In this document: positions 6,211 to 34,686 of the stretch, piece by piece
Layout: each line of letters starts with the position of its first letter
Position numbering within the stretch: position 1 is the stretch's first letter
NCBI GenBank assembly: GCA_030649735.1
Contig: JAUSFL010000036.1
Location: 96,334-160,333, forward strand
Reading direction: 5' to 3'
Length of the DNA stretch: 64,000 nt
Source of the DNA: Candidatus Iainarchaeum sp.
GTDB taxonomy: Archaea; Iainarchaeota; Iainarchaeia; Iainarchaeales; UBA10191
Position numbers and translations under genes: made by a program
The notes under the pieces: model-generated
Told to the model about the DNA's origin: nothing
The model's database searches: none
What the model saw: the letters and a program-made list of their open reading frames with translations, nothing else

Positions 6211-6338
6211 AATTTTTGGAAAAGGGAAAAAAATTCCCTTTCCTTTTATTTTTCATAAAAAAAACTCTCAAAGAAGACTTTTTAATCTTTAACTGCCTTC
6301 TAATATGGGATTTTCCAATAGGCAATAGCGGTTTTTTA

Positions 6339-9242
6339 ATGATAAAGCTCAAGAAATTAGAGTTCAAAAACTTCAAGTCTTTCAAGAAAGCCAGCATTCC
6401 AATGGCTGAAGGATTCACTGCAATTGCGGGCCCCAATGGATCGGGAAAATCAAATATTTTAGACGGCTTGTTGTTTGTTTTGGGAATTACAAGCATGAAA
6501 ATGCTCCGCGCCGACAAGCTTACAGAACTAGTCAATCACGAGGCAGAAGACAGCACAGCGCGCGTTTCGCTGATTTTGAAAGACAAGGAGCAAGAGTTTG
6601 AAATCAGCAGAAGCATTGACAGGCAGGGAAAAAGCGTTTGCAGAATGAACGAAAAGCGCTGCGGGCTCAATGAAATTGCAAGCTTTTTGAACGAGGTCGG
6701 AATAAAGCCGACAGGCTACAACATTGTCGTCCAAGGGGACATTACCAGAATCATTCAAATGAGCCCTAAGGAAAGGCGCGGAATAATTGACGAAGCCGCA
6801 GGCATTAGGGAGTTTGACGAAAAGCGCGAGGAAGCGCTTAAAGAACTGGACAAGGTTGAAATCAAAATCAAGGAAGTCCGCATAGTGCTTAATGAAAGAG
6901 AGCAATTCTTGCGCGAGCTCGCGAACGAGCGCGAGGCAGCGAACAAGTACCTGCAATTGACGCGCGAGCTAAAGCAAAGCAAGGCAACGCTTTTCAAGCT
7001 CGAAATTGGCGAGTTGAATGCTGAAAACGCAAAGTTTGAAATGAAAGAAAGCAAGATTGCCGAAGAATTAAAGGCGTTCACAGACCAAAGGAATGAAGTT
7101 TCGCAAAGAATTGCCGAGCTTTCCGCAAAAATCGAAGAATTGAACAATTTCCTCATTTCCTCTGGAGAAAAAAACTTTGAAGAATTTGGAAGGGTTTTTG
7201 AAGAGAAAAAATCAGAGCTCCGCATTAGCGAGGAAAGAATCAGCGAAGGAAAAAAAGGCCTTGAAGAATTCACAAAAAGAGAAGAAAGCATTCACGGAGC
7301 ATTAAAAGAGCTTGAGGAAAGGAAAAAACAGCTTGCCGAAGGCCTAAAGGCAGCCGCAAAAGAATTGAAAGCGCTTGAAGAAAAATTAAAGCAAGAGGCA
7401 AGCATCAAGGAAGGCAACATTAATGAATTGCAGAACGCGTTGCAAAAGGCGGCAAAAGCAATGGAAGAAAAGCGGGCTGAACTCCGGATTGCTGAAGAAT
7501 TCGCAAAGCAAGACGCACGGGCAATCACTGAAAGAAAGAATCGCTCTGCAATCCTGAAAAGCCAATTGGAAAGCATTGAAGAAAGGAAAAGCCAGGTTTC
7601 TGGAAAATTCAAGGCAGAAAACGCAAAAGTCAAAGAGCTTCAAGGAAAAGTCTCAAAATTTGAAAGCGAAAAAGTGACTGAAAACTTGAATGACAGCATT
7701 AAAAAACACGGGATTCTGGAAGGAGAATTAAAGGGCTTAAAGGATTCCTTGAAGGAATTGAAAAAGGCGGCTGCAAAATGCCCTGTTTGCGAAGCAAGCC
7801 TTAAGGAATCAAGAAAAAAAGAGCTTGCTGAAAATAAGGAAAAAGAAATCGCAAAGCTTGAATCCAAGGCAAGAACTCTGGAAGAAAAAACCAGAGAGTT
7901 TGAGGAAAAGTTTTCCGAATTAAGCCAAGCCAAAGCCGAATTCAACATAATTAATTCTGGCTTTCAAAAAACAGAGTCTGAATTAAAGCACTTTGAAGAA
8001 AGAGCAGCTGAACTTTCAAAAGAATCAAAAGAAAACGAGAAACTGCTTTCAGAAATCGAGCTAAAAAATTCCAATGCAATCGAGCAAATCCCAAAACTGA
8101 AGCAACAGCTTGGAGAACTTGAAAGCGAGCATTCCAAAAGGCTTGAAAAGCACAACAGCATTCAAGAAATTGAAAGAGAATTCCAAAAACAAAGCAATGA
8201 AAGGCTGCGCCTGGAATTCGAAGAAAAAAGCAGTGCTGAAAGAATTGCAGAATTGGAAAAGGAAACTCCATCAATTGAAAAATCAAGCATTGAAATTGCG
8301 GAGAGAATAAAGCTTGAAAGCGAAAAAGCCAGGCATTTGGGCAAGGAATTGCAGGAACTCGAAATCCAGCAGAAAAAAAGCCTTGAGAAAAACAAGCGCT
8401 GGCTTGACGAAAAAGAGCTATTGAAGGGAAAAAACGAAGAGGCTTTTGCAAAAAAGCAAAAAAGCGAAGAAATCATCAGAAAGCAGGAAATGCAATTAAA
8501 CGAGCTTGCCTTGGAAAAAAGCAAGAATTCAGTTCGCTTGACAGACTTGCAGGAAGAGCAAAAGAATTTCATTGAAGAAAAAATCATTGAAAACATGAAC
8601 TTGGATGCTTTGAGAAGGAGAATTCCCCAAATAGACAAGGAATTGAATTCTCTTGGCGCAATAAACATGAAGGCCTTGGAAAGCTTTGAGAATTTGGGAA
8701 GGGAAGTAGGGGAAGTGCGCGCAAAAGCCAACAAGCTAGAGGAAGAAAAAATTTCAGTAATGGACTTGATTCAAAAAATCGAGGTCAAAAGGCTTGAAGT
8801 GTTTGCAAACTGCTTCAACAAAGTCAATGAAAACTTCAACAAACTGTACTTTGACTTCTTTGAAGGCAAAGGCGCTTTGCGCCTGACTGACGAGAAAAGC
8901 CCTTTCGAGGCAGGACTGATCATAGAAGTTGCCCACAAAAACAACAAGACATTAAGCATTGACCTGATGAGCGGCGGAGAAAGGACTTTGGCCGCGCTTG
9001 CCTTCTTGTTTGCAATCCAATTCTATGAGCCTTCGCCATTTTACGTTTTTGACGAGGCAGACGCCGCACTCGATGACGCCAATTCCATAAAATTTGCGAA
9101 CATGATCAAGGAAATTTCAAAGCAAAGCCAATTCATTGCAATAACCCACAATGACGTTGTCATAAAGCAAGCCGACCAAATAATCGGAGTTGCAACCAAC
9201 AAGCAAAAAAGCAGTTCAGTGATAGGGCTGAAAGTCCAGTGA
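6339..9242 (+). CDS. smc: SMC-family chromosome ATPase with central CxxC zinc hook
   Basis: MIKLKKLEFKNFKSF start; Walker A GPNGSGKS; Q-loop NIVVQGDI; LGAINMKA; MSGGE signature; FYVFDEADAALD; long coiled coils; CPVC at 7779-7790. Confidence 0.9.
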   Translation: MIKLKKLEFKNFKSFKKASIPMAEGFTAIAGPNGSGKSNILDGLLFVLGITSMKMLRADKLTELVNHEAEDSTARVSLILKDKEQEFEISRSIDRQGKSVCRMNEKRCGLNEIASFLNEVGIKPTGYNIVVQGDITRIIQMSPKERRGIIDEAAGIREFDEKREEALKELDKVEIKIKEVRIVLNEREQFLRELANEREAANKYLQLTRELKQSKATLFKLEIGELNAENAKFEMKESKIAEELKAFTDQRNEVSQRIAELSAKIEELNNFLISSGEKNFEEFGRVFEEKKSELRISEERISEGKKGLEEFTKREESIHGALKELEERKKQLAEGLKAAAKELKALEEKLKQEASIKEGNINELQNALQKAAKAMEEKRAELRIAEEFAKQDARAITERKNRSAILKSQLESIEERKSQVSGKFKAENAKVKELQGKVSKFESEKVTENLNDSIKKHGILEGELKGLKDSLKELKKAAAKCPVCEASLKESRKKELAENKEKEIAKLESKARTLEEKTREFEEKFSELSQAKAEFNIINSGFQKTESELKHFEERAAELSKESKENEKLLSEIELKNSNAIEQIPKLKQQLGELESEHSKRLEKHNSIQEIEREFQKQSNERLRLEFEEKSSAERIAELEKETPSIEKSSIEIAERIKLESEKARHLGKELQELEIQQKKSLEKNKRWLDEKELLKGKNEEAFAKKQKSEEIIRKQEMQLNELALEKSKNSVRLTDLQEEQKNFIEEKIIENMNLDALRRRIPQIDKELNSLGAINMKALESFENLGREVGEVRAKANKLEEEKISVMDLIQKIEVKRLEVFANCFNKVNENFNKLYFDFFEGKGALRLTDEKSPFEAGLIIEVAHKNNKTLSIDLMSGGERTLAALAFLFAIQFYEPSPFYVFDEADAALDDANSIKFANMIKEISKQSQFIAITHNDVVIKQADQIIGVATNKQKSSSVIGLKVQ

Positions 9243-9251
9243 GGAAAAAGA

Positions 9252-10349
9252 ATGCACGCTAAAAAACTGGTTTGCTTCAAGTGCGGGAAAGAATTTCCAG
9301 CAAATTCGAGAATTTTTTGGTGCTCTAAATGCGGCTATTCATTAGATGTTGAATACCATTATAGTGAAATCAAGAACTTGGTGGAAAGAGAAGAGTTTTT
9401 GAGGGCGCCAGTAAAGCACTGGAAGTACTGGATGTTCTATCCAGTGCAGGATTTGCAGAAAGTAGTTTCAATGCATGAGGGCGGAACAGCGCTAATTAAA
9501 TCACGGCATTTCAAGGATTACTGGTTCAAGTTTGAAGGCGTAAACCCGACAGGCAGTTTCAAGGACCGCGGTTCTACAATCGAAATAACCAAGGCAATTG
9601 AAAATTGCGAGAAAGAAGTCTTGTGCGCTAGCACTGGAAACATGGGCGCTTCAATTGCAGCTTATTCTGCACGCGCTGGAATTAAGGCAAGCATTTTCGT
9701 GCCAGAATTCGCAAGCAGTGAAAAAATCCGCCAGATTAAGGCTTATGGAGCAAGCGTTACAAAAGTAAAAGGAACTTACGACCACGCGCTGGAATTGACA
9801 AAAAAAATTTTTGAAAAAAAAGGCACTTACTTGACTGGAGATTATTATTACAGGGCTGAAGGCCAAAAAAGCGTTGGATTTGAGATAATAGACCAGTTAA
9901 ACTGGGAAAGTCCGGAAAACATCGTGTGCCCGGTAGGCAATGGCACTTTATTGTTTGCTGTCTTCAAGGCATGCAAGGAATTTGCGAAAGTCGGCTTATT
10001 GAAAAGCATGCCCCGCATTTACGGAGTGCAGGCGACAGGCTGCAACCCAATCAAAAAAGCCAAGGTTTTGCCAGTCAAAAACCCGAAAACTGAAGCAAGC
10101 GCCATTGACTGCGGAAACCCAGTTTACGGCCTTGAAGTCTTGAAAGCAATCAAGGAATCAAAAGGACAGATTGCCGCGGTTTCTGACAAGGAAATGGCAA
10201 AAAGCATGAAAAGCCTTGCAAGCGAAGGCATTTTTGCAGAATTAAGCGGAGCAGCAAGCTTGGCCGGAGCATTAAAGCTTGGCTTGAAGGGAAAAACAGC
10301 GTGCATTGTTTCAGGCCACGGGTTGAAAGAAAGCAAAAGCTACTACTAG
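9252..10349 (+). CDS. thrC: Threonine synthase (PLP-dependent, fold type II)
   Basis: KFEGVNPTGSFKDRG, ASTGNMG, PVGNG, SGHGLK; N-terminal CxxC..CxxC. Confidence 0.88.
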   Translation: MHAKKLVCFKCGKEFPANSRIFWCSKCGYSLDVEYHYSEIKNLVEREEFLRAPVKHWKYWMFYPVQDLQKVVSMHEGGTALIKSRHFKDYWFKFEGVNPTGSFKDRGSTIEITKAIENCEKEVLCASTGNMGASIAAYSARAGIKASIFVPEFASSEKIRQIKAYGASVTKVKGTYDHALELTKKIFEKKGTYLTGDYYYRAEGQKSVGFEIIDQLNWESPENIVCPVGNGTLLFAVFKACKEFAKVGLLKSMPRIYGVQATGCNPIKKAKVLPVKNPKTEASAIDCGNPVYGLEVLKAIKESKGQIAAVSDKEMAKSMKSLASEGIFAELSGAASLAGALKLGLKGKTACIVSGHGLKESKSYY

Positions 10350-12772
10350 CGTTTTTTCTTTTTTTTCTGCAAAGGCCTTCTGGCCTGCACTTTTGAAGGC
10401 TTTTTTATCTGAGAGGCAATGTCATTCAATGCAGTGCTTGAAAAGCTTTTATCCCTTGCACTTGCAGTTTTGGCTGCGACAATTGGCTTTGGCTTTCCCG
10501 AATCAGTCAAGGAATCATTCAAGCGCTTTATTTCAGAGCCAATCTGCCTTAAGGCTTCCTGATAGTCTTCTTCAAGGATTTTTCCGGCGGCATAATCCCT
10601 CTTCAGCACGCGGATTGAATGCTCTAGGCCAGAGCTTTTTGAATGCAAGTAATCCAATTCCACAGTGTTGTGGGATTTTGACTTTGCGGAAGTTTCTATT
10701 TTTGAAATGCTTTCAGAAAGCTTTTTTGAATGCTCCAGGAACTCTTGCGCGCTGATTTTTCCAACAGCGTAATCCTGCGCTAGCCTTTTCTGCTGTTTTG
10801 AAAGCTCGCCAAACTCGTGAACTTCAAGCACGCCTTTAGAGCGCTTTCTTACAATCAAAATAATCAATACAACAGATGCAAGAAGCCCAACGCCTAAAAC
10901 AAAAATTATCAAAAACAAGTAACGCGTGTTGTCTTGAGTCACTGTGACATTCACTCCCAAAGGCTGCTTTCTTGGAATGTTGACTAATTCAGAGTCTGGA
11001 ATGATTGAATAATGCGCGAAAGCCAATTTTGCGGCGTTAAGGTTGCTTTCAGCCAAGAACGCGAGCGAAACCCCGCTTTTGAGCATTTCAGCGGCAGTGC
11101 CTGCCTGCCCATTCTGCTGGTAGAATTTGGCGCCATTCAAGTAATAGCGCGCGTGATCCAAGTACAAGTTTGCCCAAACAGGCTTGAAATTCAAGTCCTT
11201 CAATTGGGAATCAAGGGCGGCAATCTTGCTGACTAGAATGCTTTCCAAGGCATTGGCGTCCTTTCCATTAACCGCTGATTCTGCATCAAGCAATGACTGG
11301 GCTGAAACAGCGTCAAAATACCCGCCTAAATTCCATTTGAAGGCCTGCTCTATTTTTGCAGAATTCACTCTTCGGGTAATGTCTTCCTTTTCTGAAGCGC
11401 CGTTAATGCTTAAGCCATTCTCTGCCTTGATTATTGCAGCGCTTAATTCTGGCTTTAAAAAATCATTCAAGGACGCCCATTTTTCAGAATTGCTTCCAAA
11501 ATCGTAAAAGTTCACTGCAATGTCAAACCATGCCTGGGCGAATTCAAAATCCTGCACTTTTTTCACGGCGGTCGTAGAGTCTGTCTGCTGGACTCCATTA
11601 ATCACAATGATTGTTTCAGGCTGCGCTAGCTGTTCCAGGTTAATGCGTGCCCAAGTCAAGCGCTGCTGTGCCGCGGCATACCATTCAAAATCATTGGTTG
11701 GAATTCCCTTGTCAATTTCTTCCTCTAATGCCTTGACTTTTTCCTGCAGGTTTTGCACTTTCACTTTCAATACTGTTGAATTGTCCGAAAGAATTGACGG
11801 GTTTTCAGCAATGTCTTTTATTGTCAAAGCGTTCACGCGCGCAAGGAAAGTGTAATTTGCCGAAGAGTACAAGTAATTGGCGTCATTCAGTGTTTGCGCT
11901 TCCTTCAATGCGTCTTCAGTGTCCCCAAGCTGTGAAAGCAGGCTGTTGATTACTGAAGTGTCATTGATTAAAGTCGTTGACAATGAATTCCTTGCGGAAT
12001 TGATCAAGTCTTTTGTTTCAGAAAGGAATTTTGAATTCTGCCTCTGCAAAGGCGCAAGCGAGCTTGCCTGGCCTATTGGCTTTGGCACAAAAACCAATTG
12101 GGGCTGCTGCAGTGTTTTGTTGACGTCAATTTTTGAAATGTCAGAAAAAGCAAGCTTTAACGCAGTGTCCAATTTGTCGACTTCAATGACTTTCATCCCC
12201 CACTCTTTCAGCGCATAATCAGGCAATGAAATGTTTTGGACTCCGGAAGGCAATTTTACAGTCTGCTTTGCCTCTCCTTTCGGAATCATGAAAAGCTTTA
12301 TCCCAATTTTTGCGGCCTCTTGGCTTTTTTCAAAAACCCCGCCAACAGGCCCTATTGTGCCGTCTTCGGAAATAGTTCCGGTCATTCCAACCTGCGCCGG
12401 GATTGCCTTGTTTTGAAGCGAGGCAACAGTCAATAACGCCATTGCACTGCCTGCAGAAGGGCCTTCAACAACTGACGCCTGGCTTTTAATTTCAAACAAG
12501 TAGTCAAAATTGTCAACTTCTGGAGAATAGTTCTTTGCCAGCCTTACAGCAACCAATTCTGCATTCTGCGTTGTGGTTCCAACCAATGGAACAACAGAAC
12601 TCCACACTTTTCCAGACCCGTTAGGCAGGATTTTCAAGGTCAAGTCCGCAGAAAGGCCTTTGCCTTCAGAAGTGACGGCAAAAATCTTCATTGAAGCCTG
12701 CGAAGTCACTGCAAGAACCGCGGTTGCGGAAAAAAGGACAAAAAGCAAAACAAGCAATTGCCGAAAATTCAT
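10346..12772 (-). CDS. Secreted, membrane-anchored archaeal Lon-like (S16) serine protease lacking an ATPase domain
   Basis: Signal peptide from ATG 12772; EGPSAG catalytic Ser; MTGTISEDGTIGPVGGVFEK; C-terminal TM plus cytoplasmic coiled coil. Confidence 0.85.
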   Translation of the reverse strand: MNFRQLLVLLFVLFSATAVLAVTSQASMKIFAVTSEGKGLSADLTLKILPNGSGKVWSSVVPLVGTTTQNAELVAVRLAKNYSPEVDNFDYLFEIKSQASVVEGPSAGSAMALLTVASLQNKAIPAQVGMTGTISEDGTIGPVGGVFEKSQEAAKIGIKLFMIPKGEAKQTVKLPSGVQNISLPDYALKEWGMKVIEVDKLDTALKLAFSDISKIDVNKTLQQPQLVFVPKPIGQASSLAPLQRQNSKFLSETKDLINSARNSLSTTLINDTSVINSLLSQLGDTEDALKEAQTLNDANYLYSSANYTFLARVNALTIKDIAENPSILSDNSTVLKVKVQNLQEKVKALEEEIDKGIPTNDFEWYAAAQQRLTWARINLEQLAQPETIIVINGVQQTDSTTAVKKVQDFEFAQAWFDIAVNFYDFGSNSEKWASLNDFLKPELSAAIIKAENGLSINGASEKEDITRRVNSAKIEQAFKWNLGGYFDAVSAQSLLDAESAVNGKDANALESILVSKIAALDSQLKDLNFKPVWANLYLDHARYYLNGAKFYQQNGQAGTAAEMLKSGVSLAFLAESNLNAAKLAFAHYSIIPDSELVNIPRKQPLGVNVTVTQDNTRYLFLIIFVLGVGLLASVVLIILIVRKRSKGVLEVHEFGELSKQQKRLAQDYAVGKISAQEFLEHSKKLSESISKIETSAKSKSHNTVELDYLHSKSSGLEHSIRVLKRDYAAGKILEEDYQEALRQIGSEIKRLNDSLTDSGKPKPIVAAKTASARDKSFSSTALNDIASQIKKPSKVQARRPLQKKKKKR

Positions 12773-12828
12773 TCTAAAATTAGTGAAAAAAGTGTTTAAA
12801 TTCCTTTGCAATTTGAAAGGCCGTGCTT

Positions 12829-34568: not shown

Positions 34569-34686
34569 GATTGGCGGTCATGCCGCAAGGGCAACACCCG
34601 GACTCTTCCCGAACCCGGAAGTGAAGACTTGCAGGGTATAGGATAGCACTGCACTTATGTGTGGAGCTTCTTGGACGCTGCCAATC
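34569..34686 (+). rRNA. rrf: 5S rRNA (unlinked)
   Basis: 118 nt; terminal helix GATTGGCGG/CTGCCAATC; ACACCCGGACTC.TCCCGAACCCGGAAGTGAAG core. Confidence 0.92.

Follow-up and report, generated by a model that had tools for sequence, protein, structure and literature searches.

The gene at positions 6339..9242 on the forward strand of the 64-kb stretch of archaeal DNA analysed here (the window; 42 % G+C, zero N) encodes an Smc protein of 967 amino acids (aa) that has no recognisable hinge and carries a CPVC motif at its midpoint. We consider it likely that this protein is the sole, vertically inherited Smc of an Smc-ScpA-ScpB condensin, in which the hinge was replaced by a Rad50-like CPxC hook in an ancestor of the order (Iainarchaeales, belonging to the DPANN archaea), with the arms remaining at full length. 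It would then bind ScpA and act as a condensin. An earlier note on this DNA had proposed such a chimera, with Smc heads and a hook in place of the hinge, and the analysis supports the proposal: no hinge match was obtained, the heads group neither with Rad50 nor with a described SMC-related clade, and the architecture recurs well beyond this assembly.

The smc gene and its parts

The open reading frame (ORF) runs uninterrupted from ATG 6339 to the stop codon at 9240-9242. The longest possible frame opens upstream, at a TTG at 6216; ATG 6339 was taken as the start because 35 aligned homologues begin at its M1. The head motifs named in the earlier note, NIVVQGDI (at residue 128), LGAINMKALE (772) and MSGGE (877), were all located in the ORF, together with GPNGSGKS at 31 and FDEADAALD at 904. 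The same note had placed KCPVCE near the midpoint, which is correct (midpoint 484), and had it start at residue 481, which is off by one; it begins at residue 480, the cysteines being C481 and C484. The protein has five cysteines in all, and the other three (101, 108 and 825) lie within the heads. Its parts, all on the + strand, are as follows.

6339..9242, +: smc gene, 967 aa plus stop, hook-bearing and hinge-less (ORF and profile searches; start by 35-homologue alignment)
6339..6803, +: N-terminal ATPase head half, aa 1-155 (PDB Smc heads 4i99 and 1xew match aa 4-170)
6429-6452, +: Walker A GPNGSGKS, aa 31-38 (motif search)
6804..7766, +: N-terminal coiled-coil arm, aa 156-476 (AF2 model; colinear with TIGR02169 to profile position 499)
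7716..7862, +: Rad50_zn_hook (Pfam) stretch, aa 460-508, profile 1-49 of 52 (18.1 bits, E 0.0023, cut-off 24.3 bits)
7767..7805, +: apex loop AAAKCPVCEASLK, aa 477-489 (AF2 shows it as a non-helical loop; 35-homologue conservation)
7779-7790, +: CPVC, aa 481-484 (motif search)
7806..8651, +: C-terminal coiled-coil arm, aa 490-771 (AF2; colinear with TIGR02168 from profile position 679)
8673..9239, +: C-terminal ATPase head half, aa 779-967 (PDB Smc head 5xei, E 6.6e-87; Foldseek 5xei, 5xns and 4i99)
8967-8981, +: signature MSGGE, aa 877-881 (motif search)
9039-9056, +: Walker B FYVFDE, aa 901-906, catalytic E kept (motif search)

Hinge, arms and apex

The claim that the protein lacks a recognisable hinge was borne out at two levels. 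SMC_hinge (PF06470) was not among the 14 Pfam families listed at E <= 10 for the 967-aa protein, and it was not found in the source genome (1,281,898 bp, 51 contigs, completeness 92.74 %, contamination 2.27 %) by a search that matched 10 of 14 control genomes, so that this search revealed no second, hinge-bearing smc there. In a control set, SMC_hinge matched 35/35 hinge-type Smc. The shortfall of about 200 aa, which had been put down to hinge loss, fits as well: because the NCBIfam models TIGR02169 and TIGR02168 align right up to both hinge borders, the missing part (about 180-200 aa) is exactly the hinge, and the arms are otherwise of full length.

The AlphaFold2 (AF2) model, built on a 35-sequence alignment, reached a mean predicted local distance difference test score (pLDDT) of 78.9 and a predicted template modelling score (pTM) of 0.43. 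It consists of two long antiparallel helical arms (156-476 and 490-771) with the CPVC in the loop 477-489 between them. The N-arm is made of helices 156-354, 361-437 and 440-476, with a break at 355-360, and the C-arm of a helix spanning 490-743, with breaks near the head at 744-754 and 772-778.

Arm length falls into two classes among the hook-bearing Smc. The 32 long forms (945-1025 aa) have 450-460 aa between Walker A and the first cysteine and 397-409 aa between the cysteine and the signature, with one long-form outlier (P0010, 431/382 aa); in nine short forms (772-810 aa) the corresponding distances are 346-364 and 300-318 aa, and the difference between the N- and C-arm distances is constant at 35-55 in both classes. 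The long class includes the window's Smc (P0001) and P0002, and the short class consists of P0003-P0008, P0040, P0043 and L037. In the head trees described below, the nearest relatives of the window's Smc are the short 804-806-aa forms P0003-P0007. Because short forms are thus the closest relatives of a long one, the sequences indicate that both arms were shortened together, by about 90 aa each, and recently. The two classes recall the discrete functional Smc arm lengths treated in passages of Buermann et al. 2017 (PMC5344682).

To place the apex, aa 440-525 (86 residues) were compared with all PDB sequences. The best match was the Rad50 hook of P. furiosus (1l8d, E 5.5e-5), followed by 6zff (E 4.5e-4) and then by spectrin repeats at E >= 0.019. 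The apex and the Rad50 hook share the pattern LKxxxxELKKAxxKCPVCxxxL, and the printed alignment sets LKDSLKELKKAAAKCPVCEASLKESRKKEL opposite a 30-residue stretch. Alignment A1 holds 35 hook-type homologues with 28-76 % identity to the window's Smc. C481, P482 and C484 are unchanged in 35/35 of them and are the sole invariant residues between aa 171 and 772; flanking residues L474 (89 %), L488 (91 %) and K493 (83 %) are conserved, and the mean top-residue frequency is 0.36 in the arms and 0.69 in the heads. Since the motif is invariant across homologues of such low identity, the CPVC is not a product of chance. The Pfam hook family PF04423 matches 19/35 A1 homologues at E <= 0.01 (best 2.8e-7). 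SMC_hinge was not among the 25 of 31 Pfam families shown for the A1 homologues, and, conversely, PF04423 was not among the 25 of 65 families shown for the 35 hinge-type control Smc. In its sequence the apex looks like a Rad50 zinc hook, and by analogy with Rad50 the CPxC would bind zinc and dimerise the Smc.

ATPase heads and their phylogeny

Both head halves are of the Smc type and not of the Rad50 type. TIGR02169 (SMC_prok_A) reached 540.6 bits over aa 4-477 (profile 2-499) and TIGR02168 (SMC_prok_B) 458 bits over aa 472-962 (profile 679-1177); the other NCBIfam models gave 78-121 bits for Rad50 (best 120.6, cut-off 700), 62.7 for RecN and 35.9 for arcadin-4. The Pfam family SMC_N matched over aa 4-958 with E 7.4e-42. 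In a PDB sequence search, prokaryotic Smc heads came first (5xei with 296 bits and E 6.6e-87, 5xns and 4i99), eukaryotic SMC1-4 scored 100-144 bits and Rad50 heads at most 53 bits. Foldseek comparison of the AF2 model also returned condensin and Smc heads at the top, with template modelling (TM) scores of 0.74-0.87 (target-normalised) on 5xei, 5xns and 4i99. Walker A, the signature and Walker B with its D-E are all intact.

For head phylogeny, N-head and C-head segments were cut by motif position, and rows were labelled by a hidden Markov model (HMM) of the hinge built from eight same-class Smc and by a mid-protein CxxC pattern. The resulting 149 rows comprised 96 hinge, 41 hook, 11 neither-type (neither hinge nor CxxC) and one Rad50 row; rows for ClsN and Sph, members of the archaea-specific SMC-related proteins (ASRP), were not part of the trees, and the ASRP model found none in the order. 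FastTree placed all 41 hook rows in a clade of 50 with support 87, with a core of 46 at 96 (starred). The remaining members of this clade are eight rows of the neither type and a single hinge row, P0034. A same-class hinge Smc is sister to the clade, and more hinge Smc lie outside. IQ-TREE (LG+C20 with posterior mean site frequencies, quick), run on 84 rows after near-duplicate removal and thinning of hinge rows, placed all 32 hook rows in a clade of 39 with an SH-like approximate likelihood ratio of 90, sister to L058 (87). The neither-type rows P0014, P0026, P0027, P0039, L030 and L040 nest among hook forms in the trees. The grouping of the heads, left open in the earlier note, is thus with archaeal Smc, away from Rad50 by trees and scores and away from ASRP, ClsN and Sph by HMM score.

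P0034 is a metagenomic protein of 1012 aa with short arms and a true SMC_hinge (96 bits); in its heads and arms it shares 42-53 % identity with the hook clade (blastp, 303-398 aa). It falls inside the hook clade in both trees, and the approximately unbiased (AU) test allows it outside (p-AU 0.72; the constrained tree is 10.7 log-likelihood units better). We do not claim a hinge regain in P0034, as the AU test does not reject placement outside the clade.

In these head sequences the hook clade nests inside hinge-bearing archaeal Smc. Most simply, the hinge would have given way to the hook a single time, close to the base of the order, and the CxxC would then have been lost several times, a direction that the trees by themselves do not prove.

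Distribution in the order and beyond

The order was sampled with 41 genomes, namely the source genome (G000) and 40 relatives from 32 families. Genomes of the order measure 0.5-1.5 Mb, and smc is single-copy and conserved in them. An Smc orthologue with a mid-arm CxxC was found in 25/41 genomes (23 with CPxC, one with CLVC, plus G000). In 10/41 (G004, G005, G008, G015, G020, G025, G028, G033, G035 and G036) the Smc covers the apex and has neither CxxC nor hinge. One genome of the 41 (G010, 78 % complete, on a 2.6-kb contig) has a hinge-bearing Smc, which shows just ~30 % identity to its best matches among the proteins compared; in one (G003) the Smc apex is not assembled, and in four (G022, G026, G029 and G039) no Smc orthologue was found. 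ScpA is present in 39/41 and ScpB in 38/41. In a class-wide sample, SMC_hinge matched two of 182 genomes of the order, namely G010 and G199 (in the latter a fragment scoring 40.7 bits on a contig of 1.6 kb), against 17/19 genomes from the other orders of the class.

G026 and G029 (95-96 % complete) contain only Rad50-like SMC_N matches, and both have ScpA and ScpB; in these two genomes the kleisin and ScpB may be without their normal partner, or a highly divergent one may have escaped the search. The neither-type Smc of G004, G008, G015, G020, G025, G028, G033 and G035 correspond to L040, L158, L159, L163, L030, L162, L157 and L164. Their complete frames measure 901-954 aa (that of G028 with an insert; those of G015 and G035 are partial), and in P0014, P0025-27, P0031, P0037, P0039, P0042 and P0047 (905-949 aa) the arm simply folds back on itself and has no conserved cysteine. 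A different form is seen in G005 (L155:714-3962, -), G036 (L156:665-3913, -), P0069 and P0093, which have Smc of 1082-1084 aa with an apex insert of ~95 aa. In P0069 (1084 aa) AF2 predicts the insert as a small alpha/beta domain at aa 505-591 (pLDDT 41-74). MAFFT sets this type of insert against hinge motifs, but homology is supported neither by the hinge HMM, which gives it 2-3 bits, nor by Pfam, where it has no match; it may represent a degenerate half of a hinge or a new element.

In several hook-bearing relatives, an intein containing a LAGLIDADG homing endonuclease interrupts the Smc directly behind the Walker A P-loop (P0029 with 1548 aa, G019:C1:429310-433893, G027:C4:174801-179399 and G028:C24). 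P0029 matches Intein_splicing at 1.5e-29 and LAGLIDADG_3 at 1.6e-19, and the A1 profile search also lists forms of 1198-1563 aa with PF14890.

Beyond these genomes, a search of 1.84 billion representative sequences returned top matches of ~900-1030 aa aligned in one full-length stretch, and, at 420 bits or less, mostly proteins of 1100-1190 aa aligned in two stretches around a hinge-sized insert. In the A1 profile search, 6063 of the 7999 candidates scored reached E <= 1e-30; of its best 120 matches, none lists PF06470 and 12 list PF04423. The architecture of the window's Smc recurs in 120/120 of the best listed database clusters. Public names of the best A1 matches are 'AAA family ATPase', 'chromosome segregation protein', 'chromosome segregation SMC family protein' and, once, 'hypothetical protein'. 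Among 62 complete Smc ORFs from 80 public loci, 12 are hook, 2 neither and 48 hinge forms; the 14 hook and neither ORFs come from records titled Iainarchaeum, ainarchaeum, Diapherotrites or unnamed archaeon, plus one 'Falkowbacteria'. The latter, L069 (titled Candidatus Falkowbacteria bacterium), is a full-length hook-bearing Smc of 997 aa with CPTC, and its contig is probably a mis-binned archaeal contig. A Nanoarchaeia-like class sample has the hinge in 148/201 genomes; five of the 53 hinge-less genomes were examined and showed no Smc at all.

Genome context

The earlier note had seen no scpA, scpB or mre11 next to smc. None of the three is indeed among the smc neighbours in the window, which are housekeeping or unrelated genes, and a search of the source genome found scpA and scpB elsewhere, both intact on contig C39 and encoding a ScpA of 241 aa (C39:13766-14491; PF02616, 40.5 bits) and a ScpB of 164 aa (C39:15299-15793; PF04079, 112 bits). 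A pirin gene on the opposite strand sits between them. The search for a separate rad50 yielded a Rad50-like gene (G000:C50:22057-24402, +), whose product of 781 aa has its own CPTC and scores with NCBIfam 200 bits for Rad50 (below the cut-off), 133 for arcadin-4, 73 for ASRP and 43 for Smc. No mre11 lies beside smc or beside this gene on C50; the SbcD model gave two 22-bit matches only, at two distant loci elsewhere in the genome. Upstream of the Rad50-like gene, on the other strand, a free-standing LAGLIDADG_3 protein is encoded (C50:20670-21419, -). A third SMC_N-type frame (G000:C50:7792-9018, -; 598 aa, 41.9 bits) lies ~13 kb from the Rad50-like gene, and frames of 589-612 aa with weak SMC-head matches recur in relatives.

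As to other features of the window, an L10P insertion domain is encoded in it and marks the genome as archaeal, a 5S rRNA gene lies at 34570-34686 (+; 64 bits), and tRNA genes were not found in the 64 kb. An 821-aa ORF at 10346-12811 (-) has a Lon_C protease domain (aa 114-193) as its sole recognised part.

Weighing of alternative readings

Several observations weigh against a hook-dimerised Smc inherited throughout the order. In the scan for PF06470 and PF04423 that had been suggested as a check, the hinge was absent and the zinc-hook match to the window's Smc, at 18.1 bits, stayed under the Pfam cut-off of 24.3; 16/35 A1 homologues have no PF04423 match at E <= 0.01, and the AF2 pLDDT at the apex is just 58-66. 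The Smc equivalog cut-offs are not reached either (540.6 versus 729.4 and 458 versus 567.35 bits), as expected because the hinge stretch of the profile is missing. On the side of the trees, 33 of 182 rows were dropped beforehand (head-motif pattern failed, intein, or partial), the support of the hook clade is moderate (the values of 87 and 90 are not starred), and the Rad50 outgroup is a very long branch in both trees, because of which the root is approximate. Finally, 10/41 genomes have a neither-type Smc and 4/41 no Smc orthologue, and because such genomes occur in the order, an apex clasp is not indispensable in it. The neither-type relatives caution that the clasp may matter less than has been supposed.

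The most serious alternative, which we regard as improbable, accepts a genuine Smc in which the CPxC is no intermolecular clasp: arm zipping, head engagement and the kleisin would dimerise the protein, and the motif would be a turn stabiliser or a relic. The neither-type Smc of ten order genomes, nested among hook forms, would be in keeping with this, as would the SMC of marine Actinobacteria that passages of PMC12153180 describe as having neither hinge nor CxxC. Such a role is hard to square with C, P and C being invariant in 35/35 homologues, versus an arm conservation of 0.36, and with the 83-91 % conservation of L474, L488 and K493, which match the Rad50 hook, a structure of a Zn-bridged dimer. 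Moreover, a tetrahedral site needs more than the two apical cysteines of a single chain, and the remaining three lie in the heads.

A non-condensin identity, as a Rad50 paralogue or a different SMC-like ATPase of the repair type, is very unlikely. Its apical CxxC hook, the lack of a hinge and weak matches to Rad50 models (78-121 bits) would suit such an origin; Smc models, however, score 4-5 times higher, and solved Smc heads reach 296 bits versus 53 for Rad50. The genome also has its separate Rad50-like gene, whose product forms the very long outgroup branch in both trees, and the window's protein nests among Smc there. No mre11 is adjacent, and ScpA and ScpB would otherwise be without an Smc partner.

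Membership in the ASRP (ClsN, Sph1/2) has still less to recommend it. ASRP carry a hook motif according to passages of PMC9389158, and the ASRP model NF045487 does match, but its 107.9 bits are far below the 300-bit cut-off and its best stretch is coiled coil at aa 288-643, not the heads. The model has 593 positions versus 967 aa here, and it passes the cut-off in 0/41 order genomes.

An SMC-like ATPase of a defence system (Lamassu LmuB, Wadjet JetC or mad3 of MADS) is about as improbable as the ASRP. PADLOC gave partial matches, with mad3 at 180.5 bits on the C-terminal head, LmuB at 55 and JetC at 32 bits, and passages of PMC10586767 report a CPxCG hook in many LmuB homologues. All PADLOC scores are nevertheless far under the Smc scores, and the gene is single-copy, conserved order-wide and set among housekeeping or unrelated neighbours, with neither a conserved effector neighbour nor patchy strain-level presence seen. 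Walker B keeps its D-E, versus the E-to-Q change given as general in LmuB in the same passages.

Least likely of all is that misassembly or faulty binning joined smc to rad50: the assembly is a draft in 51 contigs, but the same architecture, with equal spacing of cysteines and head motifs, occurs in 24 other order genomes, in 12 named public records and in all of the best 120 database clusters, which excludes the artefact that the earlier note had considered.

Implications

If the window's Smc is the hook-dimerised condensin subunit that we favour, two cysteines from each of two Smc chains would jointly bind one Zn2+, as in Rad50, and the shared ion would join the two arm tips. The heads would engage on ATP, the kleisin ScpA with ScpB would bridge them, and the closed Smc-ScpAB ring could entrap or extrude DNA. 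The wider proposal, that the whole order runs an Smc-ScpAB whose hinge was replaced once by a hook captured from Rad50 and that several lineages later lost the hook, is one towards which we lean only slightly. If such a once-only capture is true, the hinge fold and its DNA-binding or gate functions would not be intrinsic to Smc-kleisin action, and correctly tuned arms would be what matters. What the hinge does in loading, DNA binding and obstacle bypass is a subject of current work, an example being the 2025 preprint 'The SMC Hinge is a Selective Gate for Obstacle Bypass' (10.1101/2025.03.17.643644). Smc, ScpA and ScpB from a 1.3-Mb genome are a small set for direct tests of models based on hinge-DNA contacts. 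The order, in turn, offers a graded natural series (hinge, hook, neither) with two arm-length classes, in which arm tuning and apex function can be compared.

In the main texts of the open full-text literature we found no natural Smc described as carrying a zinc hook, only engineered chimeras. Passages of Yoshinaga and Inagaki 2021 (PMC8665677) count DPANN among the lineages with canonical archaeal SMC (aSMC) and do not mention hooks, and those of the 2023 review PMC10586767 set SMC, with hinge and kleisin, against Rad50, with zinc hook and Mre11. Hinge alignments served as seeds for the sequence survey of Buermann et al. 2017 (PMC5344682); surveys of this kind would miss hook-bearing Smc, and their public names are generic ('AAA family ATPase', 'chromosome segregation protein').

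Comparison with known systems

Among hook-bearing proteins, Rad50/SbcC shares with the window's Smc the CPxCxxxL hook midway along an antiparallel coiled coil. It differs in its heads, which in the window's protein are of the Smc type, and in its partners, here likely ScpA and ScpB and not Mre11, the genome's own Rad50-like gene being separate. The ASRP (ClsN, Sph1/2), as presented in passages of Yoshinaga et al. 2022 (PMC9389158), are likewise archaeal members of the SMC superfamily with a hook motif; they are another family by HMM (107.9 versus 300 bits), ~370 aa shorter, and are not known to be linked to a kleisin. Lamassu LmuB resembles the window's Smc as a coiled-coil ABC (ATP-binding cassette) ATPase, often with a CPxCG hook, and differs, in what passages of PMC10586767 say of it, by its ~650 aa, its relation to Rad50, its usual Walker B E-to-Q change and the effector genes beside it.

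Hinge-less proteins of the SMC clade, explicitly without CxxC, are described from marine Actinobacteria in passages of Sussfeld et al. 2025 (PMC12153180). These resemble the neither-type relatives in 10/41 order genomes, whereas the window's Smc differs from them by its CxxC and its archaeal host.

The closest relatives in design are canonical Smc-ScpAB (TIGR02169/TIGR02168; Pyrococcus 5xei and 4i99), which the window's system resembles in the sequence and fold of its heads, in arm length, in being colinear as far as both hinge borders, in the presence of ScpA and ScpB in the genome, in single copy number and in tree position inside archaeal Smc. It differs in having no SMC_hinge and a 13-residue CPxC loop in its place, and in not reaching the equivalog cut-offs. 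An engineered counterpart exists: passages of Buermann et al. 2017 (PMC5344682) report that B. subtilis Smc whose hinge was swapped for the P. furiosus Rad50 hook, Smc(Zh), allowed normal growth on rich medium. Both versions combine Smc heads and arms with a Rad50-type hook, and the natural apex aligns to the very hook used there (1l8d). The version in the window, by contrast, is natural, ancient and fixed in its lineage, with discrete natural arm-length classes, and a naturally fixed hook-bearing Smc accompanied by ScpA and ScpB would mean that the Smc(Zh) result is no laboratory curiosity.

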